A stretch of DNA of 62,922 nt, filler included, from Folioceros fuciformis (lineage: Eukaryota): NCBI GenBank assembly GCA_049999805.1. It is 3 parts of 3 records of this genome, joined end to end, with 100 filler letters (N's around TTAATTAATTAA, not from the genome) between each part and the next. Parts side by side here need not be neighbours in the genome. Positions count along the whole stretch, not along the records: positions 48,767 to 62,922 come from JBNGIO010005941.1; 2 more parts are not named here. One strand, written 5' to 3'. This document shows, piece after piece, positions 32,997 through 62,922 of the stretch. Position 1 is the first letter of the stretch, and every line of letters starts with the position of its first letter. Under the pieces are notes generated by a model. That model had not been told where the DNA came from. It made no database searches and was given only the letters and a program-made list of their open reading frames with translations. The translations under genes and the position numbers were made by a program.

Positions 32997-34472
32997 ATGG
33001 AGGACTTGCTGCCGGCCTCCCTGCTTCAGGAAGTTCTGGCCCGCCTCACTGAAGAATCGGATTTGGCGCGCTGCAGCCTCGTGAGCAAGCGCTTCCTGGA
33101 AACGGTGCGCCACCTCACGTCTGTCAAGCTCGTGTGCACCTATGCCCGTTATCTCCAAACCAGGCGCCCACCAGGCCAGGAGCAGGGTGTTGGACAGGGG
33201 AAGCTCAATCCCACGCCCGCGCCCTTCAAGGCAATCGTGACGCGCACCCTGCTGCAGCGCCACCGGGTGGAATGCTTGACGCTGGAGATCGACGACCACA
33301 TCCAGATGCAGCCCGACGAGGAGCAGGAGGCCAAGCTCACCGACCTGTGGCTCACGGATCCCGCCTTTCTGCACCACTGGCTGCCGCATATCGGACCCTC
33401 GCTCAAGTGTCTCTCCATCACGGATTTCGGGCATCAAGCGCAGGCGGAGGCGCGTTCCTCGCGCATCCTGCCCATCCTCTCCGCCAATTGCAAACAGCTG
33501 CGCAAACTGGAGCTGGCCAACTTGCTGTTGCAGGATGCTTGCGCCGGGATGCTTCCGCTGCCTCATTTGACCAGCCTCACCATGGAATGCGTGCGCATGG
33601 GGGACATTGATCTGGCAGCCATAATGGGGAATGTGCCCGCCCTTGAGAGCCTGTCCCTCGTCACCGTTTTCGGCCTCAAAGACCTCTGCGTCCAAGGCTC
33701 CTGCCTGCTCGCCTGCTGCCTCGTGCTCACCTCCACGCCTCTGACCGTGGTGGTGCGGGCGCCCAAGCTGTCTGAGCTCCGGCTTCAGTTCCCCTGCCCA
33801 GGTCCCGACCGCCTCACCATCCAGGCTCCCATGCTCACGTCTCTGGAGCTCTTCACAGAGAAGCGGCCGGGGGCCGTCTTCGCGCTGGCCACAGCCTCTT
33901 TCCTCAAGACTATCCTCCTCATCTCACCGGACTTGACGTGCGTCACGGACTTCTCCGGACCAGGGGGAGCTGTCTCTATCTCCAACATGGTCTTCGAGGC
34001 GCCCATGTTGGCATTTGACGACGAAGGCGCCTGGGAGGGCATCCTCCTCCAGCCCAGGGTGTGCCTTCCCAACTTGGCCCACATTTCTCAGGGCTTCCCC
34101 TGCTTGGACACCCTCTTCTTAGGACCCGGATTGTGGTATGCCATGGAAACTGATCCCGACGCAAAGAAGCAGCTGGGGATTCGGAGTACTGCTGCTGGCC
34201 TTGGCACTGGCACGGCCTCTGGGTGGCCCCTGTTGAGGAAGCTGGTGCTTCATGTTCTGCTCTTGAACTATGACTCCTCTCTGGACTTGCTCACCTTCCT
34301 CGTTACATCTCTGCCCTCCCTCAAGACTCTAGAGATCTACTTTCACTGCGACAGCAAATCTGCTGCCAGGGACCGTCTGCTTTCCAACATGGAGAAACTC
34401 TTCGCCCATGTGGCCTTCAAGTCGGGAACCTGGAAGGCTCTTGTGTGGTCGGACCACCTCCACCCCTTGTAG
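32997..34472 (+). CDS. F-box/LRR-repeat protein, At4g29420-like, intronless
   Basis: F-box MEDLLPASLLQEVLARL..DLARCSLVSKRF; VKLVCTYARYLQTR; DLWLTDPAFLHHWLP..LKCLSITDF; LRR-type Leu periodicity. Confidence 0.9.
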   Translation: MEDLLPASLLQEVLARLTEESDLARCSLVSKRFLETVRHLTSVKLVCTYARYLQTRRPPGQEQGVGQGKLNPTPAPFKAIVTRTLLQRHRVECLTLEIDDHIQMQPDEEQEAKLTDLWLTDPAFLHHWLPHIGPSLKCLSITDFGHQAQAEARSSRILPILSANCKQLRKLELANLLLQDACAGMLPLPHLTSLTMECVRMGDIDLAAIMGNVPALESLSLVTVFGLKDLCVQGSCLLACCLVLTSTPLTVVVRAPKLSELRLQFPCPGPDRLTIQAPMLTSLELFTEKRPGAVFALATASFLKTILLISPDLTCVTDFSGPGGAVSISNMVFEAPMLAFDDEGAWEGILLQPRVCLPNLAHISQGFPCLDTLFLGPGLWYAMETDPDAKKQLGIRSTAAGLGTGTASGWPLLRKLVLHVLLLNYDSSLDLLTFLVTSLPSLKTLEIYFHCDSKSAARDRLLSNMEKLFAHVAFKSGTWKALVWSDHLHPL

Positions 34473-35268: not shown

Positions 35269-38200
35269 TCAACTCGGCGAGGAAACTTGGAAGATAGATG
35301 ACAATATATCGGATATATTGCGAATGTTCTCCTGGCAGTTCTTCTCTGTCTCCTCGCCGGCCTTGCTTTCCAGAACGGCGGCATCTAGCACCAGCTTCTG
35401 CTTTGCGATCTCGAAGATATTTTCGTCTACGGTTCCCTTAGTGACCAGCCTGCACATCAAGAAACAGGCAGTTAAGTTCGCCGACGATGAAAGGAGAGAA
35501 CGAATCAGAACGGAGAAGACAAAGAGGCTTCAACACCAACCGGTACACAGTGACAGGCTTTGTCTGCCCAATGCGGTGGCACCGATCTTCTGCTTGCCTG
35601 TCCACTTGTGGATTGAAATCCACATCATGCAGAATGACGGTATCTGCGCCCGTCAGATTCAGACCTTGGCCTCCAGCTCGAGTTGATAGCAAAAATGCAA
35701 AGATGTCCGTGCTACTGTTGTAGGAATCCACGAGTCCCTGTCTTTCGGTAACTGGGGTGCTGATTCACAGAATCACCAACAACGAAGTCAGGTATAGACA
35801 ATCCAAATGCTGCGAAAAGCATGATATGAAGATAAAAATGCAACTCACCTTCCATCCAACCTAACAAACTTGAATCCCATGATATCCAGTGCCCACTCCA
35901 AGATGTCAAGCATCCCAGTCCACTGGCTGAAAATCAGTGGACGGTGACCAGCCTTTTGCAGTTCAGGTAGCAGTCTGGCCATTGCCTACAACAAAATGGT
36001 GTAACAATCATGAGGTGGCTCGCCTAAGGCTCCGAAACACTACACGAGCCCATAGGAGAGCTGAGATGGCAGATAGCCCAAAGGTGATACAGACCTGACA
36101 TTTGGCAGAACTCACTGCATACTCCTCGTCCAGCTGGCCATAGGTCTCTCCATCTCCATAGGTTTTACACATCTGGAGACACAACATGTCAAATAGGGCA
36201 TTCCTGTGCGAACTTTGAACAGTTTTGACAAAGAAAGTGCGCGGGTGATGCAGCACCTTGTGTAAGGCGAAATCACTGTAAGTGCTCAATTCCTCGCGAA
36301 CCCGTTGTACTGTACACTCATTGCCAAAAACTCCAAGCTGATGAAACTTTGCGGACATACTTCTGATTGCTTCATCATTGAATATTCGCCGTGAGAGTAA
36401 AGGATGATTTGCAAGCTGCAAATGTGAATAAGCATCCATCCGGCAAGAAAATCAGCACATCTGGGTGGCAGGTGCTGCCTTGCACACGAGTAATAATCTA
36501 GTAACAAAAGGAAAGCAGCCTTTACCTTTCGAAGTTCTGTGAAGATGCTGGTCACCTCACGCCGAGGAAGGGCACTCACTAAGTTTCCCAGCCCAGCCTT
36601 CGAGGATTTTGCAGCACGTGCCGCAACAATTTTTCTATAGTTGTCTACAGCTTCTTTGTACGCAGCTTCTTGTCCTCGCAGCATCTCCAAAACCTCTAAC
36701 TGCAGAATTTACCACATCAGGTCCCAGGGATGAAGCCAGCACATTCGCGCAATCAGAAGTTCAACAAAAGCAAAGTCTTCAGCCACCCTTACTTTCTGTA
36801 TTTTTGGAACAAGCTGCTGCATCACATCAGATTTCAGGCGTCGAAGGACAAAGGGTCCAAGAATCATTTTAATTTGGCTAATGAGGCCCATGTTCTGTAC
36901 AGTCTCATGCCCTGTTGCCTTCCGGTTGCCAAGTAACTTACTCAAATCAACACCCCCCGTGTCGAATGTTTTTGGCATCATAAATTCTAGCAGAGACCAT
37001 AACTCCTGATCAAGACTGAACCACGTAAGTACCAACTACATGTAGCTCGCTCGTGACGAGCAGATCTTCCAACGGTTTCAACAAATGATCAAAGAAGAGC
37101 CTTTCAGCCCTAAAACCGCAAATCCATGGTTGCAGTACCTGGAGGTCGTTCTGCAAGGGAGTTCCAGTTAACATCAGACGGTGATGTGCTCCTTGTGCAA
37201 CAGACCGCAAATGTCGAGTCCTAAGACTGTCTCTGTCCTTCAACAAATGAGCTTCATCCATGAGCACACAGCTCCACTTCCAGCTCTTCATTAGCTTACG
37301 ATCATGCCTTTGTTGCTCACTGTCAATAAACCTCAACATGAGATGACTGACGGCTTCTCTCATACCAAAAACCCATTTCTCGGGACACGTCTGCAAACAA
37401 ACGCTTACCTCTCTCGTTCGAATAATGAGTAGCAGGTGAGCATAACATCAAAAGGAGGTTTTGCGCCTGACTTAGCCAAGGCAAGGAGCTCCTTACATTG
37501 CGCAATACGTTCATTCCCATGGTACATAAGCACAGAGAATGAAGGGCACCAGCGGTTCAGCTCACGTTGCCAGTTCTCTAAGAGAGAAGCCGGACACACG
37601 ACAAGGTGAGGACCGAAGTCTTGATCCAGCTGCCTAAGAACAGCCAAGTACACTACAGCCTGCCAACAAACGAGGCCAGACCTCAGAACCAAGTGCGCAG
37701 GAGGTCCCAACGGAACTAACCAGAGGAAGCAAACAGAAGTACCTGCACTGTCTTGCCAAGCCCCATCTCGTCTGCGAGGATAGCTGTGACAGAAAGAACC
37801 GTGTATCAGTGCACTGCATATTCAAGTCAAAGACTAAGGCTTGCAGCTAGTCAGCCATATTGACACATAAGCACCCTCAGGTGTGCATTCTCTCAAATCC
37901 GAACCCAAAGAGACGGATAATTTCAACTGACCTCAATCAGGATGAGTTCAGGGAAAATGACTCACCTCCACCAATTTTCTGCCTATGCAAAAGCAGGAGA
38001 AAATTCACTCCAACAAGCTGATAGCCAGTGAGCGACCGATCAGAACTAGAGGGCTCAATGTCACAGGCATCCCAGACATCCTCCTGCAAAACAAGGAGGA
38101 GGAGTTAGTCCGTTGTCAAACATGGTGTCTATGAAGTTACAACCATTAGCAGGGTGACTAATGGACAGGGATGGGTTTAGCAGTCACCTGAGTTACCACT

Positions 38201-42419: not shown

Positions 42420-45400
42420 TTACAGGAGGACGCAACGGCATTTAGAGTTCATTTTCCTGCTGACTAAAGCCTCAGAGGCGATCGGGACACCTACTGCTGC
42501 CTTGATGTCGGGCGCCATCGCCTGTGCAGGGGNNNNNNNNNNNNNNNNNNNNNNNNNNNNNNNNNNNNNNNNNNNNNNNNNNNNNNNNNNNNNNNNNNNN
42601 NNNNNNNNNNNNNNNNNNNNNNNNNNNNNNNNACCGTCGTTCTCGTCGTAGTATGTAAGGGAACGCCGTACGGTCGGACCCAACCCAAGGCTTTGCCCCT
42701 TCCTGAAGCTGGACTCAAATATTTGGGCAGCCAGAAAATGCCTGGCATCCGCCCCAGCCTGGGCCGACTCTACGCTGGGACTTGGCGTCGCCAGCTCGCC
42801 CTGCTCACCACCTGAAATAGCTGCATTGTAAATATGGTGCTCAACGGAGTTACAGAAGAGCGAACTAGGAGCAGCCCCTCCCTCACTTATGCTTCGCGCA
42901 TCAGCCTTCTCAGAAACGGAGGCCTCCTCGGTGGCTTCGTCTTCTGCACAAGGGCCTGACCACAGTTACTTCACATGGTCACAACACCATCCACGACTCT
43001 TCTGCCAGTCTCTACACACACCTCACCAATGCCACACGCTCTGCCTTGCTTTCATGGACAAGGAAAAGGACAAGCAAGAGGCGAGGACACCAGTCACTCC
43101 CCGGCAACGCCAACACTTCGGCCACCCAGCACTCTTGCTAAACCTTCCTTTCACCCCTCCTCACGCAGCCCAACCACACAAATTTCGCTTCTTGCAAAAG
43201 CATCTGAAACTGAGCTAGAACGCACTGTGATGTTTGAGAGGTTACTCTGAGTCCGCGGTGGGAGATTTGTTACACCTTTCTGTGAGAGTGACCCTGTAAT
43301 GCCACTTTGCTGGAAGGCCCTTAATGGGGACCTCGCCCTGTTCACCGCTACCTCACCACCTGTTCTCTTATCTGCTGTCTCAGAGTGAAACTGCTCCTCA
43401 AATCCGTCTATGAACAGGGACAACGCGTCCGGAGGATTCACATTCACCTTCTCACTCTTTTCCACGCTTGCAAGAGCTGGCGGAGGAACATCTTCAACCG
43501 GATCCCGCACAAGTGGCTCACCCTCACCCACTGCCTCTTCCTTCGCAGCCTGAGCCTTCTTCAGTTGCTCAAGTTTTTGAATCACAGCACTAAGCCCGCT
43601 ACCCTCATCTTTACCTTCCACCGCCTCTACATTTACATCGGCATGCACCTTATTCGCCACTACATCCGCCTCCTTCGTTCCCCGGTGGGCAGTTTCATGG
43701 TGCCCAGGGCCTCTACTTCCCACAGGGACAAGCCTGGAAGGTGTGGAAGCTACCTTGGGATGTATGTTCGTCTCCGGCAACAACAAGTCATTGCCTGATT
43801 CATCCTCAGCTTTGCCAGCATTCGTAGTGTGAGCATAGGCAGCGTCCTGCTTCGATTCGATGAGGCCCAAAAACATATCGAAACATCCATCGCCCGAAGA
43901 AACACGCTTATCAGCCGTTACCGTTGCCGGACAGGTCTTGATCGGTGAAGCCGATTTGGGACACACGGAATCACTTACCAGCTGTTTCGTGATAGCTGGA
44001 ACGCTGGCTACATCTCCAGGAAACCCTTCTACATTTTGTTGGACCTTTTCCTCCTCCGAAAAGGCAGGACTTTCTAGGGCTCCCTTCGAGTCCCAGTATT
44101 TCAGGTCTAAACCATAGTGGTGGTCATCCCACGAGGACGTACTAGTCGACACTCCTGTATCTGTACTCCGCGAGAAATCGTCCTTGCCATAAAAGGAACT
44201 GGGACTGTAGTGGCTGTATTGCGGAAACCTGGTAGATTTGGCCTTGTCATTCACCATGCTTTCTCGCTCCACACGACCTGTGGGTTTGCACTTGGCCGAC
44301 CCAAGACCAGCTGCCGGTGTGACAACGTGTTCGTTGCACTCTCGGATGTCAGTCCAGTCATGACTGTATCGATGGTCCAGGGATAGACTGCTGGCTTGGC
44401 TTTGAAGCTCGCTTGACAAATCAGTATCCCCCACTGCAGACAGGTTTCTGTCTGATGTTGAATTCGACCCGCAATTGGAACTCAGATACTGCGATTGCTG
44501 CGGATGTGAACCCTCACGGTTATACTCAGACTCAGTTGAAACAGCCTTTCCCTCTGTAGCAGTCATGTCGGTCCAGGTACTGGTGTCAATAGCAACAAAG
44601 TCTTGCTCTCCCTTTTGGACCCCTCGAAATGCAGTAGACTGGTCTTCTTGGATATCAACAAAATCCTGCTCCACCGCAACCACGGCATCTGTCTTCCTCA
44701 CTTCCTTATTCTCCCCACCGGTAATTGCGTTCTCCTTGCGGGTACAAGAACCGTCAAATCTCGTATCACTGGGAAATGCATAGATCATTTCAGGCTTCTC
44801 ATCCCTGGACCCAAAGTGGTCTTCTTGGCTTCCCAACCTGAGTGACCTCCTGTTATAACTCGATGCTTCCCCTGACCGGCTGTCCGGGTCACATATGTCA
44901 ACACTGACAGCGTCGATGCTCCCATATGTGGTCGTGGCTTCGGAACCAGCGTTGCTTTCTACTTCATATCTGTCAAAATTGATACCTTCTCTCTTCTCAT
45001 CCCTGTCATCTTGACTACCACCCCATCCGGAGCTCTTCTCATCGTCCTTGTCAAGAACAAGAATTTGCACGCTCCTGGATGGAGAGACTCTTTTATTCCA
45101 GTCAGGAATGAGCTCATCAACATCCTGTTCACTACCCTCCGTGTCTGCAGCAATGCTGACAGCCCTTTCCGAGCTCGCATTGCTGCTTGTTGCGATAGAA
45201 GAATCCACATTCGGGCCAGTCCTGTGAAGTAGGTTACTGGAACCACCACTGAAGAAAGAGGATCCACAAGCACTTGACTGTTGCAAAGGTCGGAATGCAT
45301 TGGCTGAGCTTCTCAGTTCCTGCAATGCCAACAAGCAGCGAATCAACAAGCCGCAGCGACAAATTGCCGTCACATTGACATGTGAAAAAGCTTACCACGT

Positions 45401-48003
45401 GCTGCCAGTCCGTGGACTTTCTTGGAAACGAGCCACCGAAGATCGAGGTATCCCTTGCTCCAGAAGGTTTACCCACTCGTTTGGAGTTCAAGTTCAGCTT
45501 GCTGGCCATTCTTCCTTCCAACTCCAGCAGAGACCTGCGGGTGTCAGCACGACTGTCGGCCCTGCTGCTTAACAAGTTAGGTCTTGTCACCTCGACCCCA
45601 TCATCGTGAAATGGCAAAACCGACCCTCTGCTTGTCTGAGAGCTAGATCTGTCGCTGTAATTCCTTGACAAGCTTGGAGAGGCAGCCCTGCCTCTAGGTC
45701 GGCTGCTTGCATCATTGGTCTCAGGAGTGTGTGCTGCTCGGAGAGCAGGACTACTGCTCCTCCTTGAGGCTGAGGGACCCCGTGTGGATGCCGACTGACC
45801 TTCAGCTAAGCACGTTCGGAGGTTGGGAGGAGGTTCGGAAGGAAAATCAGGCATTGCCGGGTATACCATCTTGCTTTTAGGTGACGCGGAAGAGCCAGGA
45901 GCGACTGAACCTCGTGTAGGAGAAGGCCCACCTCTAGTAGATGATGTCGACCTCGTTGTGGTAGGACCCGAGGACGTCCGTCGAAGAGTCGGAGTGGAAG
46001 ATCTTGCAGATGTAGAGGTCGGAGTGGAGGATCTTGTAGATGCGGAGGAGTGCGTCGACAAGGACCTGGTCGGCGTTGACGGGCGAGCACCATTTGCAGT
46101 AGATCTCATGACTGGGGATGAAGGTTTGGATGAGGAGAATGTTGGAATCCGACTGCGTGGAGTCGACGGCCGCGAAATTGTCCTCTCAGGTCCATCAGCA
46201 GAAGGCGACGGCTTCCCAGACGATGCTGCGCCCTCGACTGATGTAGGAGACTGCCATTCCGATGGGGAAAACCTGCCAAAGCCATCACCAGGTGAGGAGG
46301 GCTTCCCAGGTTGTGCAGAAGACTTCCCAGAGCCTTCACCGGTGGCCAAAGCTCTCACAGCGATTCTAGGCAGCTTCAGGAAGCCGTCATCAGGAGTTGA
46401 CGGGCTTGAACCATAAATAACCGATGTTCCCTTGCCCTCTGCCTGAGGAGAAGGCAAGGCGTCAATCACCGGTACAGGTGTGGCAAGTCCGCCATCCAGT
46501 GCTGCAGGGGGTGTTGGTGTAGTAGCATCCCCTGGTGTGCCGGGTGTCCCAATCCCTGCCGAGCTCCACTCTTGTTGCATTACATCTGCCATCTGTGTGC
46601 CTATACCAGCTTCGGATACTGCACTCTCCTCCACTGGACCGACAGGCATGACAATGACATTGGGCACAGAAGCCCCACCATTACCCTCTCCCACCGAGGA
46701 CCTTGCGTTTGGTGTAGAAGGCCTTGCCGGTCCTGCAGCCCTAGCAGAGGAGTCCAGCACTCTTGGCCCTGGTGATGCAGGCCTTGCTCCAGCAGTGGAC
46801 GGCCTCGTTCCTGGTGTCGAGGGTCTGACATTGCCGTCACTGGCAGACGACAGCCTCCCATTTGAGGATGTAAGTCTACCTCTGGCATCAGTAGGAGTTG
46901 ATGGCCGCCCATTGTATGAAGAGGACCTGTTGAGGCTGTCAGCGGGCGAGGCAGGCCTGGCATGTGACGCCGGCGCCCCATCAGAGCTTGCTGGAGTCCT
47001 GCTATTAGGTGTGGCAGGTCTGCCAGGGCCCTCCGCAGCCCTTATACTTGGCCTCCCGGATGGGCTGGAAGGCCTGCTTGACGGTCGAGACGAAGGAAGT
47101 GGTGTGGACGCAGGTACTGTTGACCTGCCCCTGGCAGCACTAGCACCATTGGTCGGGGTACTTGGTCTCCGAGGACTTAAGTTTCCGCGGGTGCCTACTT
47201 TTAAAACCGGTTCCACCTTAGGAGGCTCCATCTTCCCACTAGACAGCTGCAAAACAATGCTAACCCGAGTGTGAGTCCGTAGAGCTTCCGTGATGCATTC
47301 ACACTCACAATCGCACCCAAGAAGTGAAGTGACAGAGGCACGGAAGGCTCCAGGAAGGAGTAACTCACCCTGGAGGCGGGTTTCGCCGGGGGAACGTATC
47401 GGGGGTACAAGCCACCTTGCACCATTCCTCCCAAGGAAGAGTCATGGTCTAAGGAAGGGAAGAGCGGAGTCCCCGGAGGCGTCAAGAGCCTGCAAACCCA
47501 GAACACATTGTAATCAGGCATGGGGAAGCATCACACGCCAAGGCCCTAACAACCGAGCGCAGCCACAAAGCACCCACCAATCATAGTCGTTCTTGTCAGG
47601 GTCCGATACCAGCAAGTCGTTACTATGCCTGTGATGGGCGAGAGCAGAGGCACGAAATCCCGACAACACCCCGTACTTGGTAGCTGCAGAAGCCAGAAGA
47701 AGACACATTTCCTCAGACCCAAGCCAACAATGTCCACCACTAGGCCACCTCCCACATTTGAAAAAAAACGGAAGAGCAAGCATGCGGCAGCGAGGAAGCG
47801 TGCACGAAGAGGCAGCACTGACACAGAGACGCCTCTATGAGGTCCTCGGTGTCCGAAGAGGGATGGAGGTAGTTGACACGCTCCCGGCGCCTCATGTCAT
47901 GGAACAATGCCAGGTCCTCGTCCCTGTCGTGCTTGGCCATGGTGGTGGGCAGGCTCCGGCCCCGCCTGTGCTGCCCGGCCAGGGCCTCCCGCACGGCGCT
48001 CAT
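42420..48003 (-). CDS. BASIC PROLINE-RICH PROTEIN (BPP) family microtubule-associated protein, long type with C-terminal CaaX
   Basis: RDEDLALFHDMRRRE; DKNDYDW|LLTPPGTPLFPSLD; repeated RPSTP/RSSTP; PDFPSEPPPNLRT. An acidic exon follows, then two more phase-compatible exons ending KMNSKCRCVLL* at 42420. The last exon crosses an N gap. Confidence 0.8.
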
Positions 48004-48666: not shown

Positions 48667-48766
48667 NNNNNNNNNNNNNNNNNNNNNNNNNNNNNNNNNN
48701 NNNNNNNNNNTTAATTAATTAANNNNNNNNNNNNNNNNNNNNNNNNNNNNNNNNNNNNNNNNNNNN
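48667..48766. other. Artificial contig linker N44-TTAATTAATTAA-N44
   Basis: Same structure as 23795-23894. Confidence 0.95.
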
Positions 48767-49896: not shown

Positions 49897-52171
49897 CGGA
49901 TGTATCAGCCCACATATGTTCGCACTTGCTGTGTTACACCTTATTTCTCCTCTAACATTATTGAGACTCAGATTATGTAATTGGCGGTTTGTGGCAAAAA
50001 GCTTGGCTCAGCCGGTACTGCGTGTTCCAAGGTCTAGATCTATGGACAACCTGTGATATCCGCAAATGAGGGACCCTGGGGCGGGCCGACTTGCCAGTGC
50101 CTGATTGTTCACGTTGTTGCCTCACAAATAAATGGATTTATGGCTCATTCCCAAGGCCGTCTACACAGACACTGCCATCAGGGCCACGCTGCAGCTATTC
50201 CACCAACACTCTTAAAACCTGAAGCTCAAAATGTCGAATATGTTGCAAGTGAGGATGACTTTGAAACAGGAACTAACTGGAGCAGCCCTACGCGGGCTGA
50301 GGGAGGGGTTTTGGCATCTAGACCTAAGCTTGACTGCGGGATGAAGTAGCCAACTCCTGTCCACGAGCCCTTCTGTTTTCGTCGCAATTGTTGTCGCAAG
50401 CATTGCAATTGCCACCATGCCACACCCGGAATGACGGTCCGAGTAACCGATGGTGCGCACATGGTATACAAGCTTGAACACCAAGCATAATTATGGAGGG
50501 CGGAATTTGCATCCAGCGGCACGCAGGGAGTGAAGGGTCGCATTTGGACTGTGAGCACTACATTCTGCGTGGAGAGATCCTGTCTGTAATCACGTGACAA
50601 GGCCAGAGCCTGTTCATGCCCGTGTTTCACCCAAGTGAACTGAAACGGGAACACTACACGCTACACAGTTCAGGTTAATACGTGTCTCACCTGATTTTTA
50701 GTTGGTCCCATCAGCAGGGTGAACAGTGGAGGCGAGTAAATGCCTTTACCAGTAGCACCCGCCATAGACAGCACCTGAAGTTGCGCCTTCAGCTACCTGG
50801 TGTGGACAAGTGCCTTGTCGTGAAGCGTAGCTCCGCTGTGTGCTCGACACCTAAGGCGACCATGTGGAGCCTAAACAAGGATTTCATCTGCCATGGAAAA
50901 GTAGCGAATGGGACATGATGTTGTGAGGGCAGCGAAGCCAGGCTCTAGGAGGGACCAAAGAACGTTGGATAGGGCCATTGTCGTGGAATGCAGCTTCATC
51001 CAGCCCAGTGCTTTTGTTCCCTGTGTCGTGATGTTGTTGGGCTGGAAACGAGTCTCTTGGCAACAGCATCCACATCGTTCAAGCATCATGTAACAGAGCG
51101 TGCTGTAGTAGAGAATCCCACGACCCAGACGTTGCGGATGCAGGTCAGCCCAAGAGTGCCCAACCCAAACCTAGGATGCTACTCAGGAAAACAAGCACTT
51201 TAAATATGCAGCAGTGTAGAGCACAGTGGTGTGGGCCAAGCAGTCTTGCAAAATGTACGAGATCCTGGTCAGGCCTTGCTACTTCTCTTGTTCGTGTTTT
51301 CGTCTAACATCCTACATGATTGCACCACAACAAAACGGTGGCAGTGTCAGAAATAAACCAGCAGAGGCAAGAGGTCGTACATAGGCAACGGGTAGAAGGT
51401 GTAGACAACCGACACAATTGACACTTGAACAAGACAAGCTTGGGCAGCACATGTGTGCGGGCTCCACAAGGTGTGTGTGTACCAGTGCAGGAGGCCAAGC
51501 CTGAAGCTGGCATTGTTTTCTGGGGTCACTTCATCCTCACAGAGAAATGCATGAACGTCCGCCAGAAAGCTGGGGCTCTTCAAGTACCCGTTGGGCAACA
51601 GTCCGCATAGGGAGAGCATATACCTCCCAGGCCTCGCACTAGCGAAACTCTGATTAGAAAGCGTTCTTGGGACGGTGAAGACGACCAGTTTCCAACAGGA
51701 GACCGGTTATGGTCACCGGCAATCTCCAGTCTGCCCGTCTGCTGTCTTGGGTGTTTTGTGTTCAGATGCTGGACTGTGCCTGCAAGCCTTTCGACGGGAG
51801 GAGTGGCACATGTCGCGGAGTGCTCCATGGAGCTTGCACTTGGTGGGTTGTCACTGGGCACGATTGCTTCATCGTGCACCCTCTTCTGTGCAAGTCCTAG
51901 TGCTCTTGGTTGACCCGGTTCACCAAGACCAGGCTACCTTGTTACAGAAGACTGCTAATTAGAGGTTTACATCACCTCAACCTACTACCTTGTAGTAAGA
52001 TAAGCACAGGTCATTAGACGAACGAGCACTGCTACCAGTGTCATTATTGGGGGCCCTCTTAGATGATTGGACCTCTGCAATACAAAATTACATAGAATAC
52101 ATGTACAACTGCACCAGCAATAGCCTAGTGCAAGTGCCAGAAGCATACCAGTTTCTACTTTTGTTATAGAC

Positions 52172-55100
52172 TTATCTATCCGAGATGGTCTCATCAGACG
52201 AAACATCGTTATATGCTTCTCCATTCACCAATTCACCTCGAATGTCAGGATCTGATTGAGTCTCGCTTGAAGACTCGTCGCTGTCGCCTGCTGTCATGAC
52301 AGGCCCCGCGGTCTGTGTGTTAGCACCTCTAACCTTAATAGTGGAGTCCCTACTGTTACTAGTGGCAGCCTGGTTGGGACAGGCTGCTGCAGACCGGAGC
52401 CAAGGTGGAATAATCTCCACCTGATTCATCTGCTCAGGTCTACCAGCTCCCAATGCTGCTGACTCCGAGCTAATGCTCATCATGGTCTCCTGGATAGGTA
52501 ATTCCCGAACCACATGCTGCTCTGCATCAAGTTTCCCAACCTGATAGTCCCCCATTGCACAACTTGAGCTGAATGGATCTCTACCTTTCTGAAGTGCCAT
52601 GTTCACTTTCGCAAAAGCCTGTATAGCCCTTTGATCCTGTGATGCAGACAGGTCAAGAGAAGGCTCCAGCTTGAAGCAAGGAACCCTAGACTGTGCATAG
52701 CCACTGGCTGCATCTTCCAAAAATGTCCTCCGCTTCAAAAACTCTGAGATAGAGGAGGCCGTGCCGGGTTGACTCGGAGGAGAGGGCCGAAGGCTGAAAT
52801 CCAATGGTGGGACAGGAGGTGTTAGTGACAAATCACTGGAAACAGGCATTTTGGCTGAGGAGCCATCCGTGGGCAAAGGCAGCAAAGGAATAGTAGGCCC
52901 CATTCCTCCACCAGATCGGGAGAAAGTTAGGTCTAAGTGGAAGGGTCTAGTCATGTTAGGGGTGGAAGAGGGATAGCCTAAAGGGGTTTCACTCATTCCT
53001 TGATGAAGGTGAGGATTATCCCCAAAAGAATGATTCTGTGCTTCAGGAACACTCACACTACCACTCACATCGGTCACAACAGAAGGCCTTTTAGTTTGCT
53101 TTCGCCTTCTCTTCTTTCTTCCAGGCACTGCTGGTACCTCCAGTGGAGGTAAGGGGAGGGCTGGCGGGGGAAGGATAGGCTTACTGCCACCATGCAATGA
53201 AGCAACAGCGTTTGCGATGGCCGCTATGACAGGTGACAAAGCAGGAGGAGGCGGAGGCGGCCCTGAGGACTTGAAAGCATCCTTCAACCAATGGGGAAGG
53301 TTGCTAATACTCTTTGATGACGACTCCTTCCAAGGGGATGACTGTAACCCTTTCCCACTGGACATTTGCCTGGCCAACTTCTTATCGAAGAAACCATCAT
53401 TCATTCGAGACGACTTTCCACCCAGCATTCCAAACTGGGGTATTGATATAGGAGTCCTACCTTCTTGCGCTCTGCCTCCCAAGCCCAATACTGACCCCGG
53501 ATATTGGAGTGAAAAGGCATCAAGAGACCTCTGAGAAAGATTTTCAGGAATTGGCAAAGGTTGTCTCTGCAGTGGGGACATTCGCTGGGCCTGCTCCGAC
53601 AGACTCAAGGGCATCGGCTTCATCTCAGGTAATGCCTTCATCCCCTTGAAATCGATCTTCGACAGACCATCCAAAAGATTAGATGGTCTGGGTTCAAACT
53701 TGAGATGATCCATGGTACTGCACATTGGGAACAGCAAACTTGCATTTGCCGCAGTCTCCCCAACAAATGGTCCTTCAGGCGATTTCATACCTGAAAGATT
53801 GGACAACCCTGTTCCCGCTGACGCCGATGCTGACCTTAATTGAGACAGATCCGGTAACTTCTGAAAATCCACTGTTATCCCACTACTACTGACCTCTGGC
53901 AACCGTTTCTCATCTTCAGGCATCCCCAACCCTAGTGACGTGTTGAACTTCAGGGAGCCGAAAGACGGACTTATCTCGTGAGATTGCGAAGGCAAAGCCT
54001 GGTTAGGCCAGCGAGCCGAATCACGTCTGTCTAGCATGTTCTTTTCCTGCAAAAACTTTTCCACTGCAACCTCAGGTTTGTTTTTCCCACAAGTTGCCCT
54101 CAAAGCCTCCGAAAACAGAGCTGCAGAAGGGGAGCTTTCTCCAGCTCTGGTGGACAGGTGGATATCAGGTAACCTTCTCAGGGCGCCCTCAAGCACTCCT
54201 TGACCCCCAACAGCTGCACTTTTCTTCACAAGAGGTTCAACCTTCGACTGCTCATTCTGCTGCCACCTTTTCTCCAGATCCTTCGAAGTTCGAGAATCAT
54301 GGAAGTTCAATTTTGGGTCTGCAAGCATGTCTGCCCAGTTTTCCCCGTACCTCCGAACTCCACTCCATAACACATCCAGTTCTTCTTCTGTCCACGGTTC
54401 CTGTCGCTGTTCCCGGCGTCTGTTCTCCTCAACAGCCCTCGCTTTTCCATTAGCCAATGTTTCCAGAAATGCAAGAGATCGGGTGTTGTCAAGGATCTGC
54501 CTTGAAGAAGGCATGGGCAGGTGTCTGAAGTCTGCACTAAGGTCAGGTACAACAAACCCAGTCACATCTTTCAGAGGTCCAAGGCTAAAAGAACAGGATG
54601 AGGACCCATGTTTCCATATATCACCTTGCCCTTTCAGCGTAGATCCTGCAGCAGATGTTAAACCGTTGGCCCGAGTTTCCTGACTGCCCAACCCAATACG
54701 AAGATTTGGCACGACAGGCAGCTGGTTCCAGGGCCCTCGGTTTCTCTGGCCAGAATCGGGCAAATCTCCAGACTTCTCCTCACCAGGCAACCAGGATTTG
54801 CCGGAGTGCCTCTCCTGCCTACTTGAGAGCCCTGCTGTTTCATCTAAAGCCCGATGTACCCGTGACTCTGTGCCGCCGACCTCAGCAGAAAGCAAACCCT
54901 GCATGACAATCAGCTCAAAGAGTGCATGAGAAAGCCTTTCCAATCAGAAAATGCTTCGTAGAAGGTTTCAGACAAACACTTTCGGTACTGTAAACCTTGC
55001 AAACGGATGAAGAAAGAAGCCTACCCGACTGTTCAGACTCCAAGAATCGACGCTGTTCAACTTGTGTCCACCTTCTTGCTTCTCCAGATCAAGCTTAAAA

Positions 55101-58100
55101 GGTCTAGATGGTCCCCCTTCAAGAGCTTCTCCACTTTTGCTTGCACTCATGTATGCATTCCACGCAAAATTATGCTCATTGTGCTCGCCTAATTGTTGAA
55201 TTGATGCGATATTGGAATTAAATGCACTGCTGCCAAGCATTAGCAATTCACCAGGACTGTCAGATGACTGCTTCTTTCGCAGATCTTTTGCAGCTTGACG
55301 CAATTGGTTCTCAGGTCCTGACAACGCTAATAATCCAGTCGAAAAAACTGGCAGGGAGTCCTCTACCAAACCCTGCACATCAGTTCTGGAGTTTCTCCCA
55401 GGGAAACTAGAGCCATTCAGTCCTAGCTGTGGCCCGGGTAGGTCTGCAGACATATTGCCAGCTAACTGCAACCCTCCTGATTGGATTTCTGGCCGTGCAT
55501 CAGTTTCTGGTATCAAGCTGTTGCTACAAAGCTCTGCTGGCACGCCAGGAACAGTGTAGTATCTGTGGGGAAAAGATACATTGCCCTGAGTGTGTGTTTC
55601 CACATTTATTGGTGGCCAAAGCATCTGACTGCCGGTTTGGCCAGGCCCCCAATTGTTCCCTTGGCCCTGCGACTTGGAAGTATCTCTTTGTCCTTGACCC
55701 ATGTCACCGGCCTGGGCTGATGGATCGTCCATTCCATTAGAACACTTTACCCTGAGTAATGATTTATCCCCATCTGCCTTACCAGCAAGACGCATGGCTT
55801 CAGTATTAACATCCTCCCTGCTTTCCTTGCCCCGTAAGGCAATTCGTTCCTTTTGCCTGTCCCTGGCCTTCGCACTGCAAAAACAAGACAGCACAAAATT
55901 CTTGTCACTAAATGACAAAAGACCACAACTGAGATCCGAAAGGCAGCTACATGACATGACAAGGAATACAGGATATACAATTTAAGCTTCAAGGCTCGTC
56001 CTGCTGCAGTGTATCCAGACGACTCCTCTTCTTCCTCGCGAGCCTCCGACTACAACAAGATCATAAGTTGAGAGGAAAATCCCACTTAGTGTTGTAATTG
56101 GGAAAAGATACAATGACCCATGAACAAACGTTGTACCACACCCTGCCGTTACAATAGAGACAGGGCAAAACGTACAGACCTCACTAGATGTTGGAAGTGG
56201 CGACTTCAGTGCAACTCCTTCATTGTACGACACAATCTTCCTTTGACGTTTCCCTCTGCCAAGCATTGCCTCCTTTTGAGTCTGAAGCTTCTCCCACCTG
56301 AGGTCAGTGGGCAAGATACATGAGCAATCTAATTAAAAATAATAAACTAAGGCAGAACTTCATACAACATTGAGACAAATTCATTTTTAGGTGAAATCCT
56401 GTTCGAGATTACCTTTCCCGCAACAGCCTCTCCCAGTCATCATCCTCTTCACCTTTCCCCCCTCGCTCAATTACCGTACTCATATCTGTCTCTTTGCATG
56501 GGAGCTCCTCTGTATCCACCTCTTCAACTGCATCTTGATCATTCGATTCCCATGTCTGCACAGCCAAGACACTACACATAACTATACAGCAGACAGACAA
56601 CCTAGTCAGCACTACACCAACGGCATCGCGTAAGAAATATGCGAGCACTTGAGCCGAGGTATACCTTCACAGATCCAAGAATATCTCCGTCTTGCTCACC
56701 CTCAGCCTCCTCATGGTAGCTTGTTGACCGGTCTAGAAGCCGGGTGATTGCTGCCTCATCCCACACAATCTTACTCCGCCCAGGCTGCAGGCACTTGTCA
56801 CCATAATTATCGCCTAGGCCATTTACCTTTCTCTTCTGCTTTCCCTCAACTTCATCTGGCACATCTCCGTCTGAACCATCAAGAGGAATAGGAGCATCCT
56901 TGGACCCATCTGGACGCGAATCCTGGAATAGCTCCTCAGTACCCCAACGAAGAATATCCTCAACCTCCTTTTGAGATCCAGACTTGTTTGCAAAGAGATG
57001 GTCTAGCATGAGCTTCTTTTTGGCCAGTTGGAGAATGCGTTCCTCCACACTAGCCCGCACCATGAGTCTGTAAACCAACAGAACTTTGGACTGGCCAATT
57101 CGATGAGCACGATTCATAGCTTGAATATCTGCATGTGGGTTAAAGTCGGAGTCATAGATTATCACCGTGTCGGCTGTGGCAAGATTGATGCCTAAACCAC
57201 ATGACCGAGTAGATAACAGAAAGACAAACCGTGAAGTATCTTGATTGAACCGAGCAATCGCAGCCTGTCGATCTGCCAGTGGTACATTTCCTGACACCCG
57301 CTCATAAGAGTCACCACCATACTGGTACGTAAGATAATCTTCGAGAATATCCAACAGCTTAGCCATCTGAGAAAATATGAGGACTCGATGACCTTGCTCC
57401 TTGAGCTTTCCCAGCAGAGTGTGCAAAAGCTTCAGTTTTGCTGAGGCATTGATACGCATATCTTGCAAAAACTCCGGAGTGCCCTTTTCAGGTTCTGTAC
57501 CAGAGATGAGGTACGGATGATTGCATACCTTCCGAAGCTGCATAACAATGTTCAGCATAGACCGCTGTTGACCAGCCTTCACACCTTGCCTCAATAGCTG
57601 GTAATTCCTTGTCAACAGAGCCCGATAGTACTCTGCTTGAACAGAAGTTAGCTCCACCGGAACAAGTCTTTCCCTCTTTGGAGGGATATTCTGCATAGCA
57701 TCCTTCTTGAGCCTTCGTAGCATGTGAGGGGAGACAAGCTTCTTCAGCTCATCCACCTGCTCCATGGTACTGAGTGAGTTGAATTGCTCCTGAAATGCGG
57801 CAAGTGACCCCGGACACCGGTCTGGTTGCAAGAAGGCCAACAGATTGTACATTTCACCAAGATTGTTTTGAAGCGGTGTACCCGTTAAAAGCACCCTGTG
57901 TGCAAAGGAGTAGGTGTTGAGTAAAGTTGACAACTTGCTCTCTGAATTTTTCAATCTGTGACCCTCATCTACAACCAACGACTCCCAAGGAACTGCACGA
58001 AGCTGATTAGAATCACTGATCACCATCTCATACGTGGTGAGCATCACATTGAACTTGAAAGGCCGCTGCTTCTTCCCGTCGCTCTCACCTGCATACCACT

Positions 58101-61100
58101 CAAACTGGCGTATGGCAGCTCTAGCTTTGACCGTTCCATGATACTCTATCACATTCAATGAGGGAGCCCAAAGGGCAAACTCTGCCATCCAGTTTGGCAT
58201 CGTTGACAAGGGGACAAGGACAAGGCAGGGCATCCTCACTCCAAACTCATGATGTAATGTGGAGAGAAAGGCACATGCAGAGATTGTTTTACCTAAACCC
58301 ATCTCATCCGCCAAAATAACATTTTGCCGCCGCAACCAACACTTTCGCAGCCAGTTCAGTGCCTCCATCTGATGCGGAAACAGAGTACCGCCCTGCAACT
58401 CCTTAGGCTGCTCCGTGAGCGGTTCTACTGGCCCATTTTTGGCAAGATGCCCGGGATTGGGGAGACCTTCCGACTGGAGAGCTGCTGATTCAAATTTATC
58501 AAACTTTTCTATAAGTTCAGCATGCTTGCTGATGACCGGCTCATCAAGCCGTTCCCAGGTGCATTCCTCATACGACAGCCCCGTCCACTTCACGAGTACT
58601 CTGTCTGAGTTCCCAAGCTTCCTTCGGGATATGATTCGTTGAGGTTTGGACCACTGCTCATCCACAAGCATCATGGGAACCACACCAAACTTAAGCTTGT
58701 AGTTGTCAAGCTTGCGCTTGGCCAGTAGTAGCAAACTGTGTTCACTGATCCACTGATTATGGATATGAGCCTTCCCAGCCCACTTCACCAGAAATTCCAG
58801 GCTTGACTTCTCCAATGACTTGTCCGGTGGAACTCTACCTCCAGCAGCTGAGGCCTTTCCCCCCGGTGAAGGGGACTCTGATCTACATTCTGCAATACCA
58901 TCACATGACTCAGGCACAACACCCTCATCAAGCTTTGATGCAGAAGGCTTGTCCAGTGCATCTGACGCATTGGCAGCAGAGCTTTTTGCCACCTGCTGTG
59001 GTAAAACTGCAGATGACGGTTTGCACTTCAACGGTTCAGAATTAGAATTCTCTGGACAACCCTTTGAATCCAGCACCATTCCGTCAGTCAATGAGTCTAC
59101 TTCCATTGGAACAGGCATTTCCTCTTCATTTGAGTCTGGGTTTAAAGCTGGACTCCCGTTTTCGCTTCTGGCTGTAGATACCTCGCAGTTGTTTGGGATT
59201 CTGTTCACACTTAAACTTAATGCTGCATCCTCAGGATTTGAATAGGCATTCGATGCTGCAACCTCAGGGCTTGACCTGGCTCTTGATGCTGCAGCCTCAG
59301 GACTCAGCCTGGCCTTTGATGCTACAGCCTCGGAGCTTTTCCTGTCATCATCATTCTCTGTCTCCCTGTGGAGATCCTCTCTGCTCCTCACACAACTCAA
59401 GTCAGCATCAACACTCTTGTGTGGCTTAGAGTCAGATCCGGCCCCTTGGACTGCAGTGAGCACACTGTTATCAATGGGGTAGTTCGAGGTAGTTTCCGGG
59501 GCTGGACTGATTGCCCCTAATCTACATCCCAAAATTCGATCCACCTAGTCAAAGCACAAAAGTTAGAATTAACCTGAGCTAGAAAGCCATGCATTCAAAT
59601 GACCGATGTCCCAGACCAACATAACACTGACTTCCAGAACAGAGACATGGCAAATTGAGCTCCCACCTGTTTCTCATGTGGAGACAGAGGGAAAAAGTCC
59701 TCCATAAATTTCTTCCCAAACTTTCCACCTTTGCTTGCACCTTCCAGTCCACAGCCTTTACAGAAACCTGAAGTGCCTGGAAAATCTGAAGACAAATAAC
59801 CTGTCCCACATCCTGCACATCTTACATACACAGCGTTTCCTCTGTCCTCCTGCTTCTTCTTCTTGGGATTGTTAGAGTCCCCATCCTTCTTTTTCTTCTT
59901 AGGCTTGTCAACATGCAGGTTGCCTTCAGATTGACAATCTTTCTCTTTTCCCATTGTGTTCTTTGATTGCAACATGTCTGGCCCATGTTCCTTTTTCCTT
60001 TTTCGTTTTCTTACTTCATCTGCAGTCTCTGCCTCTTCGCTGTGATTCACTTTGCAGCCCGCCTGAGGTTCCAACTTTTTCTCACCAGGCAAATCGATAG
60101 TCTTACAAGGTTTGTGACCGTCTAGTTTCTGGTCCCCAGTTGCAGACGAAGTTCCAGACTCTCTATTCTCAACACATAAATGACATCTCCACTTTCCAGG
60201 AGGAGTTTCCTGTAAAAATATCAACATCACAAGGCATCTAGTCATGAAAAGGGAGCTATCTTAAGCGTACTGCATTGCAGTAAAAAATATGGCAAGACGA
60301 AAGCAACCCCCCACGGCTCATATAAGGCTCCCTGTGTCCGAGAAATTACCTTGAGAGGTGGGACAAGACAATCGAGATGATAAACACGAGGGCAGAAGTC
60401 GCAGCACAGTAGGTCTCCCCCAATCTCACAGATAACACACTCATAATAGTACTGCATACAGGAACAAACGTCAATTCTTCATGTGCTAGAACGAGGCTAC
60501 CAAAATCTCGAAAAACCACAGAATTATTACAGTACGGCATACAGGATCATATGTCAATTCTCTAAACTGGAAAGAGCACAGGATCATTACAGTACTGCTC
60601 ACCCCATCCGATCCTGTCTTCTTCTCTTGCTGTGCACTATCCTTGTTGATCACGGGGCTAGCATCCAGGTCACTTGACACTCTGTCATTCTCATCTACAT
60701 CCATAGACGCAGAGACTACTTTAATCTTCTTCTTGGGAACCGACTCCATGGATGCATCGTACAAGTCGTCAGATCCACTGTCCTCGAGGGTTTCAGAGTC
60801 CTCCGGTTTCTCCGACTTTCTCTTATGCCTGCTTGACTCATGCTCTTTAGAAGTGAGTGGCTTCTCAGCATCTTTGCCTGCACGGTGAAGTTTCAAACGC
60901 CTTCTATCGGGGCGGACAGGATGTTTTGCAACAGTCTTGTACAACCCACGAGATCGCATGGCATCCACACATCTGGCAGCCCGGCGAACACAAACCTTCC
61001 TCACTTCTCCCAACGCTGCTTCTAGCTCCTGTTGCTCTTCTGAGGTGATATCCTTCAATCAAATCATACAATGCCAGTATTGTCAGGACCACAGACCACT

Positions 61101-62922
61101 AACAATTTTGGAGCTGCAGTGCACTGCTGACTACAGTCATGAGAGCAAAGCAGAAAAGAGTGAAGGTGGCAAGATGGCTGCACAAACCTGTTTGAAGAAA
61201 GTGTCGAAATTTTCCTCATAATGGGCTAAGTTTTCAGACTTCATCCATACACTGCAAAGGCCCCAAACAAGCATGCGTTGGGTCGGAGAAGAAAAGAGAA
61301 CTTGTTGTGAAATATGACAGTTTGCACAGAACCGCGTGCCTATTGAGCTAAACAGAACAACGGAGCCAGCCACAGGGCAGGCTGGTTAAACACTCCTAGC
61401 CACACATCAGGAAAGGGAAAACAATAGCAGTTACAGCAGGTCAAGAATGGCAGAAAGAGATACTCACTACACGTAGTCGCTGAGTCCATAAAATTTCACA
61501 CAAATGTGATCCGCCTTTTTCGTCCTGGAGAAGAAACGCGGAGAAGAGGTATTAGCACACAAAAGACGAGGAAGAGCAGAGCAAAACAGAAGAGTAAAAT
61601 TGCATGCCAATGCGTACGGGAGGGACAGAGACACTACAAGTACTCACTTGACAACTTCCGGCGGCAGCTCGCTGGTAGTGGACACCTGGACAAGCATGGA
61701 GAAGTGAAAACCAGTTGGCTCAACCCTAAACTCAACACACAACGAGGCAAAGGGCAGGAAGGGGGAGGTACTGACCCTCGCAGGCCACCAAGGGTGTCCA
61801 TCAAGCTTTGCCCACACAAGCATCTGTGTCGAAAAGGACTTTTTTCTGGATTGGCCATCAGACGACACTGGGTGAAAAGCACCGGCAGCGGACATCCAGC
61901 GCTTAGAACCCCCGTCCTTGCGGGCACTGCGTTGCCTCTTCAAAAAGTCGGGGACAGAAGTGTCAGCATGAGGGGGATGGCGGCCGTTCCTGGGACCCTG
62001 TCGTTCATCTGTGAGACTGGAAATGGAGATGGAGGAAAACATGCGACGTTAGAGCTGTAGCTGCGTGTGGAGAAAACGATTCTGGACATGGAGTGCAGGT
62101 GCATACCCGCCATCGGAATGAGTGGTGGTGGTGGTGGTGGTGGTGGCAAGATCTTCGGAGCGAGTCCGAGCATCAGGAGCAGAAACGTCCCGAATTGGAG
62201 GCGGGGTGGGGCTGGCGCTGGCGCTGCGTACAGCTGGACCTGGCGGCGGAAAGAAGAGATCCATGTGAGCCACAACGTAATGTAGGACAGACCTGCGAAC
62301 CAAGTGAGGATGAAAGGGGAGGAGCGGCAAATCCGGCATGCACTACCAACCATTAGAGGTGGCCCGGTTCTTGACGCCGCCTTGATCGCCGGGGGAGAGG
62401 CGATGCGCAAACCTGAGAAGAATGCTGGATGTTGGTGCCCGCTTGTGACTACTCTTGCCATGTTGGACTTGGGGGTCCGTGTCCCTGGTGTCCCGGTCTC
62501 GCTCTCGCTCTCGCTCTTTGTCCCTCTCCCGCTCCCGGTCTCGGTCTCGCTCTTTGTCCCTCTCCCGCTCCCTGTCTCGCTCTCGGTCTCGTTCCCTGTC
62601 CCGGTCCTTGTCCTTGTGCTTGAGCTTAAGGGGCAGGAGCAGAGGAGCATGCGCATCTGGAGGGGAGGAGGTGGCAGCTGAGCAAGCTGATGGAGCGGAA
62701 GGCGAGGGTCGAGCAGGGGCAGGGGCGGCGGGGTTGCCGAGCTTGATTCGAAGGCGGACAGGCGGGTTAGTCCCCGTAGCTGTGCCTGAGCCTGTGCCTG
62801 CGCTTGTGCCAGTGCCTGCACCTGTGCCAGTGCCTGCACCTGTGCCAGTGCCTGCACCTGTGCCAGTGCCTGCACCTGTGCCAGTGCCTGCACCTGTGCC
62901 AGTGCCTGCACCTGTGCCAGTG
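52172..62922 (-). CDS. CHR4: CHD3-type chromatin remodeler CHR4/PKR1-like (PWWP-PHD-chromo-chromo-SNF2-helicase C-DUF1087-SANT); 5' end lies beyond the window
   Basis: [35 protein letters not shown]; chromo [16 protein letters not shown] and [95 protein letters not shown] motif; C-terminal SSDETISD typical of CHR4. Confidence 0.92.
62803..62922 (-). repeat. 18-bp coding minisatellite (GGTGCAGGCACTGGCACA)n encoding (GAGTGT)n peptide
   Basis: At least 6 perfect copies up to the window edge, in the reading frame that splices into the CHR4-like gene. Confidence 0.85.

Follow-up and report, generated by a model that had tools for sequence, protein, structure and literature searches.

We analyzed a 62,922-nucleotide (nt) stretch of DNA from Folioceros fuciformis (assembly GCA_049999805.1), here called the window, in which an earlier note made from the sequence alone had placed a PWWP domain ahead of a chromatin remodeler, on the minus strand at 60603..62016. 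We consider it very likely, with a probability of about 0.87, that this region codes for an N-terminal PWWP domain belonging to a CHR4/PKR1-type remodeler (CHD subfamily II, Mi-2-like), and that this architecture is ancestral, extending from zygnematophytes to land plants, and was lost once on the flowering-plant stem. The evidence comes from a contig that joins the PWWP exons to those of the motor, from a match to a profile of orthologous PWWP regions, and from the distribution of the domain among CHR4 orthologs.

PWWP exons run in frame into a CHR4-type motor

All five minus-strand exons proposed in the earlier note (62016-61776, 61685-61648, 61524-61468, 61251-61188, and 61052-60603) are preceded by AG and followed by GT, and when joined and read in frame +1, they give the stop-free peptide that was quoted there. 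The fifth exon ends in phase 0 (...GSDG), and the exon from 60451 begins with YYYECVIC. A 9,347-nt contig from a public sequencing run, X1, aligns to positions 52000-62922 with 0 mismatches. It skips at least 13 introns, all of them CT..AC, i.e., GT..AG on the minus strand, and bridges every intron from 54898 to 62351. Among the intervals it omits are exactly the five predicted introns (60452-60602, 61053-61187, 61252-61467, 61525-61647, and 61686-61775), and in this single contig, the PWWP exons are continuous with those for the PHD, chromodomain, SNF2, and Myb domains. Of the words sampled from the region, 58% are present in run X1. The run's type is unrecorded, and that it is RNA is a guess, and we used it only for the introns that its contig bridges; an intron-free contig is what complementary DNA gives. 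One joint, 62107|62016, is unlisted among those of X1 because the trinucleotide repeat at 62115-62153 was skipped, and the contig's own numbering leaves room for exactly an exon at 62107-62239.

The splicing proposed in the earlier note, with GT-AG ends and matching phases, is thus borne out by the exon borders, the open frame, and the exact contig junctions, including joint 61052|61188, which had been singled out for checking. The same goes for the run in frame into the PHD exon, where the phase is 0 at GSDG|YYYECVIC and joint 60451|60603 is in the contig. The apparent start at the TTG at 61058-61056, which the note had discounted, does lie within a splice acceptor (TTGAAG|G). The PWWP-PHD-double chromo-SNF2-SANT architecture that it put forward holds as well, since one contig and one open reading frame (ORF) carry all these domains.

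The spliced model consists of 15 exons and 14 introns, all GT-AG; the gene, with at least 15 exons, occupies the minus strand between 52172 and a point past 62922. The model contains one ORF of at least 2,995 codons, with a stop at 52174-52172, which is still open at the window end. The domain order in this ORF is a low-complexity extension with a VRLRIKL motif, a basic motif, the PWWP, an acidic linker, a PHD finger, two chromodomains, SNF2 plus Helicase_C, a DUF1087-like region, a Myb/SANT-like domain, and a C-terminal tail. As a correction to the earlier note, exon 62016-61776 is internal, at least two coding exons lie further upstream (62239-62107 and 62351 to the window end), and the gene is cut by the end of the window. 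The first in-frame ATG, at 61895-61893, is in exon 61776-62016, and there is no in-frame ATG in exon 62351..62922. Because ortholog similarity begins upstream of this ATG, with the basic motif at 61940, and because VRLRIKL in the upstream exon matches ortholog N-termini, we place the real start beyond 62922.

The first intron of the PWWP region (61686-61775) is 90 nt long, in frame, and stop-free, and an ORF at 61644..62048 reads through it. Its retention would add 30 residues between PWWP beta2 and beta3 and leave the frame intact.

The N-terminal module matches PWWP domains over its whole length

Pfam was applied to the separate exons. The first of the five exons alone matches PF00855 with an expectation value (E) of 7.5e-5 and 23.6 bits, over profile positions 2-17 of 93. 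For the spliced region, we built a profile (CHR4-PWWP) from an alignment of 10 orthologous PWWP regions, with 131 positions. Model residues 261-386 score 109.4 bits against it, over positions 1-130, while the best score among 200 shuffles of the same residues is 7.4 bits. The PWWP domain claimed in the earlier note is therefore recovered almost end to end by the profile of its own orthologs. These orthologs themselves match PF00855 with 42-60 bits in 10 of 10 cases, near the whole profile length. The P/S-W-W-P motif found at the start of beta2 is here PWWP, at 61793-61782.

Structure prediction points the same way. An AlphaFold model of the PWWP segment of the Calypogeia ortholog has five strands and two helices, with a mean pLDDT (predicted local distance difference test) of 70 and low confidence over the first 30-odd residues, which hold the basic motif. 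When this model was used as a Foldseek query, the top matches were all PWWP domains (HRP-2, HRP3, PSIP1/LEDGF, and NSD3), with a target-normalised template modelling score of ~0.8. The predicted five-stranded barrel with its helices is carried from Calypogeia to the window protein through an alignment with one four-residue and one one-residue gap. Relatives by sequence with solved structures include the PWWP domains from DNMT3B, NSD2/3, MSH6, LEDGF, and HDGF-related proteins. A search of the ESM Atlas with the Taxus PWWP part returned generic PWWP clusters only.

According to the accessible part of a study of the DNMT3B PWWP, the aromatic cage of that domain consists of F236, W239, and W263, and the domain also binds DNA via a basic surface (PMC6316889). 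HMMER alignments place F236 two residues ahead of WW and pair W239 with the second W and W263 with the F in VKFYG. The window PWWP has H, W, and F at these positions and hence two aromatic cage residues of the three. When the positions were tabulated for the window and 20 relatives, the first was H, G, C, S, R, K, or Q, and an aromatic residue was found there in 0 of 20 CHR4-type PWWPs; His occurs only in the window and Spirogloea. At the second position, W is found in 20 of 20, and at the third, F or Y in 18 of 21 and L in the other three. As judged from these alignments, the CHR4-type PWWP family would have at best two-thirds of a cage.

The architecture is found across non-flowering plants

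With a 980-residue query from the motor exon, the best matches are plant CHROMATIN REMODELING 4 proteins, with 66-70% identity, and the 120 best matches consist of proteins named CHR4 and of unnamed relatives. Of these 120 rows, 14 carry a precomputed PF00855. Nine of them are named (Cryptomeria, Diphasiastrum, Selaginella, Calypogeia, Adiantum capillus-veneris, Marchantia, two Sphagnum species, and Riccia fluitans), and the other five are unnamed or transcript-derived. Three non-flowering rows, Ginkgo, Ceratopteris, and Adiantum nelumboides, have no PWWP. Since they all lack the PHD along with it, these models are probably N-terminally truncated annotations. PF00855 occurs in none of the other 103 rows among the best 120, of which 82 are visibly from flowering plants and 21 have no visible name. 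The CHR4-PWWP profile picks the same 14 of 120 and matches no angiosperm among these rows, the best angiosperm E being 5.4. A Pfam PWWP is likewise absent at E 0.01 from all seven of the angiosperm CHR4 proteins with the longest N-termini. Angiosperm CHR4 proteins instead have ~55-75 residues of a different kind before the conserved ..KKxGxDGYYYEC.

The order PWWP-linker-PHD is shared within single proteins, since model residues 260-570, from the PWWP to the PHD, give a single high-scoring segment pair (HSP) to 10 of the 13 PWWP-bearing orthologs (e.g., E 9e-51 to Calypogeia). A profile search over 1.84 billion representatives returned 704 matches at E ≤0.001. Among the best 150 of these, the only SNF2-bearing proteins are CHR4-type, namely three that were already known, one from Taxus chinensis, and one from the zygnematophyte alga Spirogloea muscicola. 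The Spirogloea protein has 2,565 residues, with a PWWP at 229-322 (68 bits), chromodomain, SNF2, Helicase_C, and DUF1087; a PHD was not detected in it. The Taxus protein likewise combines a PWWP with a chromodomain and SNF2, and a 334-residue fragment from Mesotaenium has the same basic motif and part of the PWWP. Word-indexed searches with the PWWP region alone are insensitive and uninformative on other algae. With the Calypogeia region, such a search returned seven proteins, adding Riccia sorocarpa, Ceratodon, and one unnamed entry, and with the Spirogloea region, it returned Spirogloea itself and three Oryza PWWP proteins without SNF2.

The position of the first intron of the PWWP region also looks conserved, because seven short database proteins (82-197 residues) stop directly after WWPAxV, which is the site of this intron in the window. 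Those that could be named come from a moss, and among the rest are matches to conifer or Sphagnum sequences.

In a maximum-likelihood tree of the chromodomain-ATPase region, built without a PICKLE-type outgroup, the window protein forms its own deep land-plant branch, outside the moss, liverwort, lycophyte, fern, and seed-plant clades, a position that would suit a hornwort. Spirogloea falls outside all land plants, and the angiosperms form one clade (100/100) within the seed plants. Because the PWWP is present in CHR4 proteins of liverworts, mosses, lycophytes, ferns, conifers, and Spirogloea and is absent from the flowering-plant rows, the simplest reading would be that the fusion predates land plants and was lost once on the angiosperm stem. 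The earlier note had left two histories open, and it is the ancestral one, with loss in angiosperms, that this distribution supports, at the expense of a lineage-specific fusion.

Two candidate remnants in angiosperms were dropped. A degenerate PWWP retained in angiosperm CHR4 was recovered neither by Pfam in the seven long N-termini nor by the family profile in the 120 rows. A stand-alone PWWP protein from Colocasia (27% identity), considered as a detached angiosperm piece, has only generic PWWP similarity. We also observed two PHD fingers in the CHR4 models of two liverworts and Selaginella and a reverse-transcriptase fragment fused at the N-terminus of the Taxus gene model.

Layout of the gene and of the window

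Table 1. Exons and encoded features of the CHR4-type gene, listed from the window end toward the stop codon. Exons 1 to 5 are those of the earlier note, and joints are those of the X1 contig
Feature	Position	Strand	Evidence
Upstream coding exon, open at window end	62351..62922	-	Contig piece 62349-62834; joint 62239|62351; open frame
Second upstream coding exon, Pro/Ser-rich, with Thr run from ACC repeat	62107..62239	-	AG/GT borders; frame; joint 62239|62351
Exon 1, basic motif and PWWP beta1-beta2	61776..62016	-	PF00855 E 7.5e-5; tblastn by 8/10 orthologs; joint 61685|61776
Exon 2, PWWP beta2-beta3 loop	61648..61685	-	Joints 61685|61776 and 61524|61648; profile match
Exon 3, PWWP beta3, VKFYG at 61499-61485	61468..61524	-	X1 contig; profile match
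Exon 4, PWWP beta4-beta5 and first helix	61188..61251	-	Joints 61251|61468 and 61052|61188; profile match
Exon 5, closing PWWP helix (to ~60996), then ~130-residue charged linker ending ...KKTGSDG	60603..61052	-	Joint 60451|60603
PHD finger, first part (YYYECVIC...)	60350..60451	-	PF00628 E 1.6e-7; tblastn by 9/10 orthologs; contig joints
PHD finger, end (CHLC 60185-60168), and lysine-rich linker	59667..60209	-	Open frame; X1 contig
Tandem chromodomains, SNF2 ATPase, and Helicase_C (2,880-nt exon)	56665..59544	-	Pfam; X1 contig; CHR4 similarity
Three small exons, DUF1087 region in orthologs	56555-56413, 56297-56180, 56049-55979	-	Contig joints; collinear tblastn
Last two exons and stop	55874-55025, 54898-52175; stop 52174-52172	-	Joint 54898|55025; Myb/SANT-like; conserved C-terminal end

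In the large motor exon, Pfam finds SNF2-rel_dom (PF00176, E 5.5e-76), Helicase_C (PF00271, 7.8e-24), and Chromo in two stretches (2.6e-17). The motor motifs DEMGLGKT (58308-58285) and DEGHRLKN (57969-57946) and a third motif of 11 protein letters at 57123-57091, which we take to be helicase motifs I, II, and VI, are retained, and we therefore expect the motor to be an active ATPase. The DUF1087 region is split over small exons, and exon 56180-56296 alone gives PF06465 with E 0.01 and 16.3 bits (cut-off 22.8), over profile positions 36-60 of 63. Further downstream, the Myb/SANT-like domain matches PF00249 with E 6.5e-6 and 26.6 bits, above the cut-off of 24.4, with WTEEELD at 54394-54374.

Two motifs precede the PWWP. 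VRLRIKL, at 62759-62739, has a counterpart near the N-terminus of the moss and Spirogloea orthologs. The basic motif, RSARKDGG..W at 61940-61908 (12 protein letters), has R, R, and W invariant in 10 orthologs; we can only speculate that it might be part of a nucleosomal or DNA contact or a nuclear-localisation signal.

The upstream exons are rich in repeats. An 18-nt tandem unit (x7.7, 62785-62922) encodes TGTGAG-type peptide repeats and continues past the window end, a 36-nt unit (x3.2, 62491-62607) encodes an RD/RE-rich tract, and a trinucleotide repeat (x8, 62122-62146) encodes a run of Thr. One contig of run X1 departs from the sequence of the window at 62850, and the length of the repeat may thus not be equal in the assembly and in run X1.

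Elsewhere in the window, there is a second, different gene of the SNF2 family at 35528-37781 (-), with many small exons, which CHR4 orthologs match by tblastn with 25-57% identity; an ORF in it gives PF00176 with E 3e-11. An unbroken 2,331-codon ORF at 13133-20125 (-) encodes a homolog of UTP20, a component of the small-subunit processome, with UTP20_N, UTP20, and UTP20_C domains. Among the other long ORFs, Pfam finds a galactosyltransferase domain at 3606-4943 (-), WD40 repeats at 23851-24918 (+), and F-box/leucine-rich repeats at 32931-34469 (+). Two Ser/Pro/Ala-rich ORFs of 746 and 735 codons at 43151-47441 (-) have no Pfam match and may be one low-complexity gene. A short N run at ~48680-48765 shows up as runs of X in six frames.

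Alternative readings and the likely role of the PWWP

We propose that the PWWP would be a further nucleosome-contact module beside the PHD and the chromodomains, and that such multivalent binding would hold the ATPase on, or steer it to, particular chromatin. The ancestral domain would have been kept in liverworts, mosses, lycophytes, ferns, conifers, and the organism studied here, and in flowering plants, a segment of ~65 residues would have replaced everything ahead of the PHD. Several points weigh against this reading. The RNA nature of run X1 is a guess, and an identical processed copy in DNA would likewise be intron-free. Contigs cannot reveal whether a shorter PWWP-less isoform coexists, and the start codon and true N-terminus lie outside the window. 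The Pfam result for the PWWP covers exon 1 only, and its score is below the cut-off of 25.6 bits because just PF00855 positions 2-17 are encoded there. The loss in angiosperms rests on the 82 visibly named flowering-plant rows, which do not include Amborella and water lilies; these lie outside the survey, as do cycads, Gnetales, named hornworts, and other streptophyte algae. Finally, the algal evidence consists of one full-length gene model, that of Spirogloea with its undetected PHD, and the Mesotaenium fragment of 334 residues.

Because contigs give presence and not abundance or alternatives, and because angiosperm CHR4 shows that a PWWP-less protein is viable, one might suppose that only a minor or condition-specific isoform includes the PWWP exons and that the main CHR4 transcript starts from a downstream promoter and is angiosperm-like. 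This is improbable, since the PWWP exons are connected with the remaining exons in the only contig across the region, the pieces listed show neither a contig end nor a loose end between 60209 and 62351, and the full-length form is found in orthologs from at least six other lineages, in several cases on intron-free contigs of 8-10 kb. It is far less probable still that the PWWP exons form a separate gene upstream and that the long contig arose by read-through or by chimeric assembly. Short-read contigs can indeed fuse neighbouring transcripts, and the type of run X1 is unrecorded, but the contig contains no intergenic sequence and passes from exon to exon at GT-AG sites, the frame is open over 2,995 codons, and the order is collinear within single proteins of 13 orthologs. 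We found nothing that speaks for a recent, lineage-specific fusion; a 2012 survey describes SNF2 proteins with a PWWP from Chlamydomonas and Volvox alone and treats them as species-specific gains (PMC3457860). We regard such a fusion as virtually untenable here, since a homologous PWWP, the basic motif, and the intron site after WWPAxV recur in CHR4 of liverwort, moss, lycophyte, fern, conifer, and Spirogloea.

Given the ancestral PWWP-bearing CHR4 that we favour, what its PWWP would bind is a separate matter. The earlier note had suggested that it could couple remodeling to H3K36-methylated gene bodies (methylation of histone H3 at lysine 36), and a classical reader of H3K36me2/3, or of another methyl-lysine, would recruit the remodeler to transcribed genes. 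In sequence and fold, the domain matches PWWPs whose solved relatives read methyl-lysine and DNA (DNMT3B, NSD2/3, MSH6, LEDGF, and HRP-2), two of the three cage positions are retained, and a methylammonium group might in principle stack against the His at the first. A precedent for a PWWP that steers a remodeler via H3K36 methylation and DNA binding is yeast Isw1b (PMC8934638). The idea is nonetheless weakened, because the position aligned with DNMT3B F236 is never F, Y, or W (20 of 20), and the third position is Leu in three of 21, and we consider it doubtful. For the same reason, the absence of an aromatic residue from the first cage position, we lean toward a PWWP that mainly binds DNA or the nucleosome, with a weak or non-canonical methyl-lysine contact. 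Another ligand, or a role in protein-protein contacts, appears rather unlikely.

As a tentative suggestion, CHR4-type PWWPs may form a distinct, cage-reduced subclass, present from zygnematophytes through gymnosperms together with the basic RSxRKxGG..W motif, whose ligand would not be H3K36me3 but linker or nucleosomal DNA, or another histone surface or mark. The single loss at the base of the flowering plants might then mark a switch in targeting toward transcription factors. If true, the ancestral chromatin toolkit of plants would include this subclass as a component so far overlooked.

The window gene itself is an ordinary, well-supported gene model. What it contributes is a changed picture of how the original remodeler was targeted, in that the ancestral plant CHR4 would have had an extra chromatin-binding domain, which a close algal relative and all the non-flowering lineages sampled still have. 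It also carries a warning for annotation. The 5' exons are easily missed, as in the models from Ginkgo, Ceratopteris, and Adiantum nelumboides, and orphan fragments that comprise exon 1 alone occur in many databases.

Comparison with known systems

The earlier note could not say whether the architecture was undescribed. In databases it is not new, since there are public records with a precomputed PF00855; in the literature, where our search excluded subscription journals and supplements, we found no paper describing a PWWP on CHR4. The term PWWP is absent from the accessible text of two papers on CHD3 evolution (PMC2507757 and PMC10630071) and of the PlantCHRs paper (PMC10589754). As far as searched, the gene is thus a further member of an architecture that databases show and the literature does not discuss. 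The 2012 survey of PWWP proteins, in its accessible part, reports SNF2 proteins with a PWWP only in Chlamydomonas and Volvox and none in land plants, Physcomitrella and Selaginella included (PMC3457860). In contrast, the present-day Selaginella CHR4 record has a PWWP, and the land-plant part of that statement, as it stands in the accessible text, is hereby corrected. The Chlamydomonas and Volvox proteins, known here by that description, are green-lineage SNF2 proteins with a PWWP, treated in the accessible text as volvocine-specific gains (PMC3457860); they are not among the best 150 of the 704 profile matches.

The closest counterparts are the PWWP-bearing CHR4 proteins of other plants. Those of Selaginella moellendorffii and Cryptomeria japonica are recorded as "protein CHROMATIN REMODELING 4 isoform X2," and those of Marchantia, Riccia, Calypogeia, Sphagnum, Ceratodon, Diphasiastrum, Adiantum, and Taxus are unnamed or hypothetical. 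They share with the window protein the order PWWP, PHD, two chromodomains, SNF2, Helicase_C, DUF1087 (a DUF1087-like region in the window protein), and Myb, as well as the basic motif, with 66-70% identity in the ATPase exon and 27-39% in HSPs over the PWWP and the linker to the PHD. The window protein differs in its separate deep branch, its long repeat-rich N-terminal extension, and its one PHD, where three orthologs have two.

Angiosperm CHR4/PKR1 proteins (Arabidopsis At5g44800 and the rice RFS/CHR729 group) are orthologous from just before the PHD to the C-terminus. The angiosperm rows have no PWWP, with ~55-75 residues before the PHD in most; the Arabidopsis sequence itself is not among the rows compared. 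To our knowledge, work on CHR4/PKR1 has been confined almost entirely to Arabidopsis and rice, whose proteins begin shortly ahead of the PHD. The accessible part of one such study reports that Arabidopsis CHR4 affects the floral transition and the levels of trimethylated histone H3 lysines 27 and 4 (H3K27me3/H3K4me3) and that it meets MADS, SPL, and AP2 factors (PMC7865970); a PWWP does not figure in that account.

Animal CHD3/4/5 proteins (Mi-2, NuRD) resemble the window protein in their PHD fingers, tandem chromodomains, SNF2 motor, and DUF1087 region (DUF1087-like in the window protein) but have two PHDs and no known PWWP in cis. In animals, NuRD components are instead contacted in trans by PWWP proteins, ZMYND8 or PWWP2A for example. 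The nearest functional precedent is yeast Isw1b, which, according to the accessible text, is steered to gene bodies by the PWWP of Ioc4 (PMC8934638). There, the PWWP acts in trans, in a separate subunit of an ISWI-type complex, whereas the PWWP of the window protein, with its reduced aromatic cage, shares one polypeptide with a CHD-type motor.

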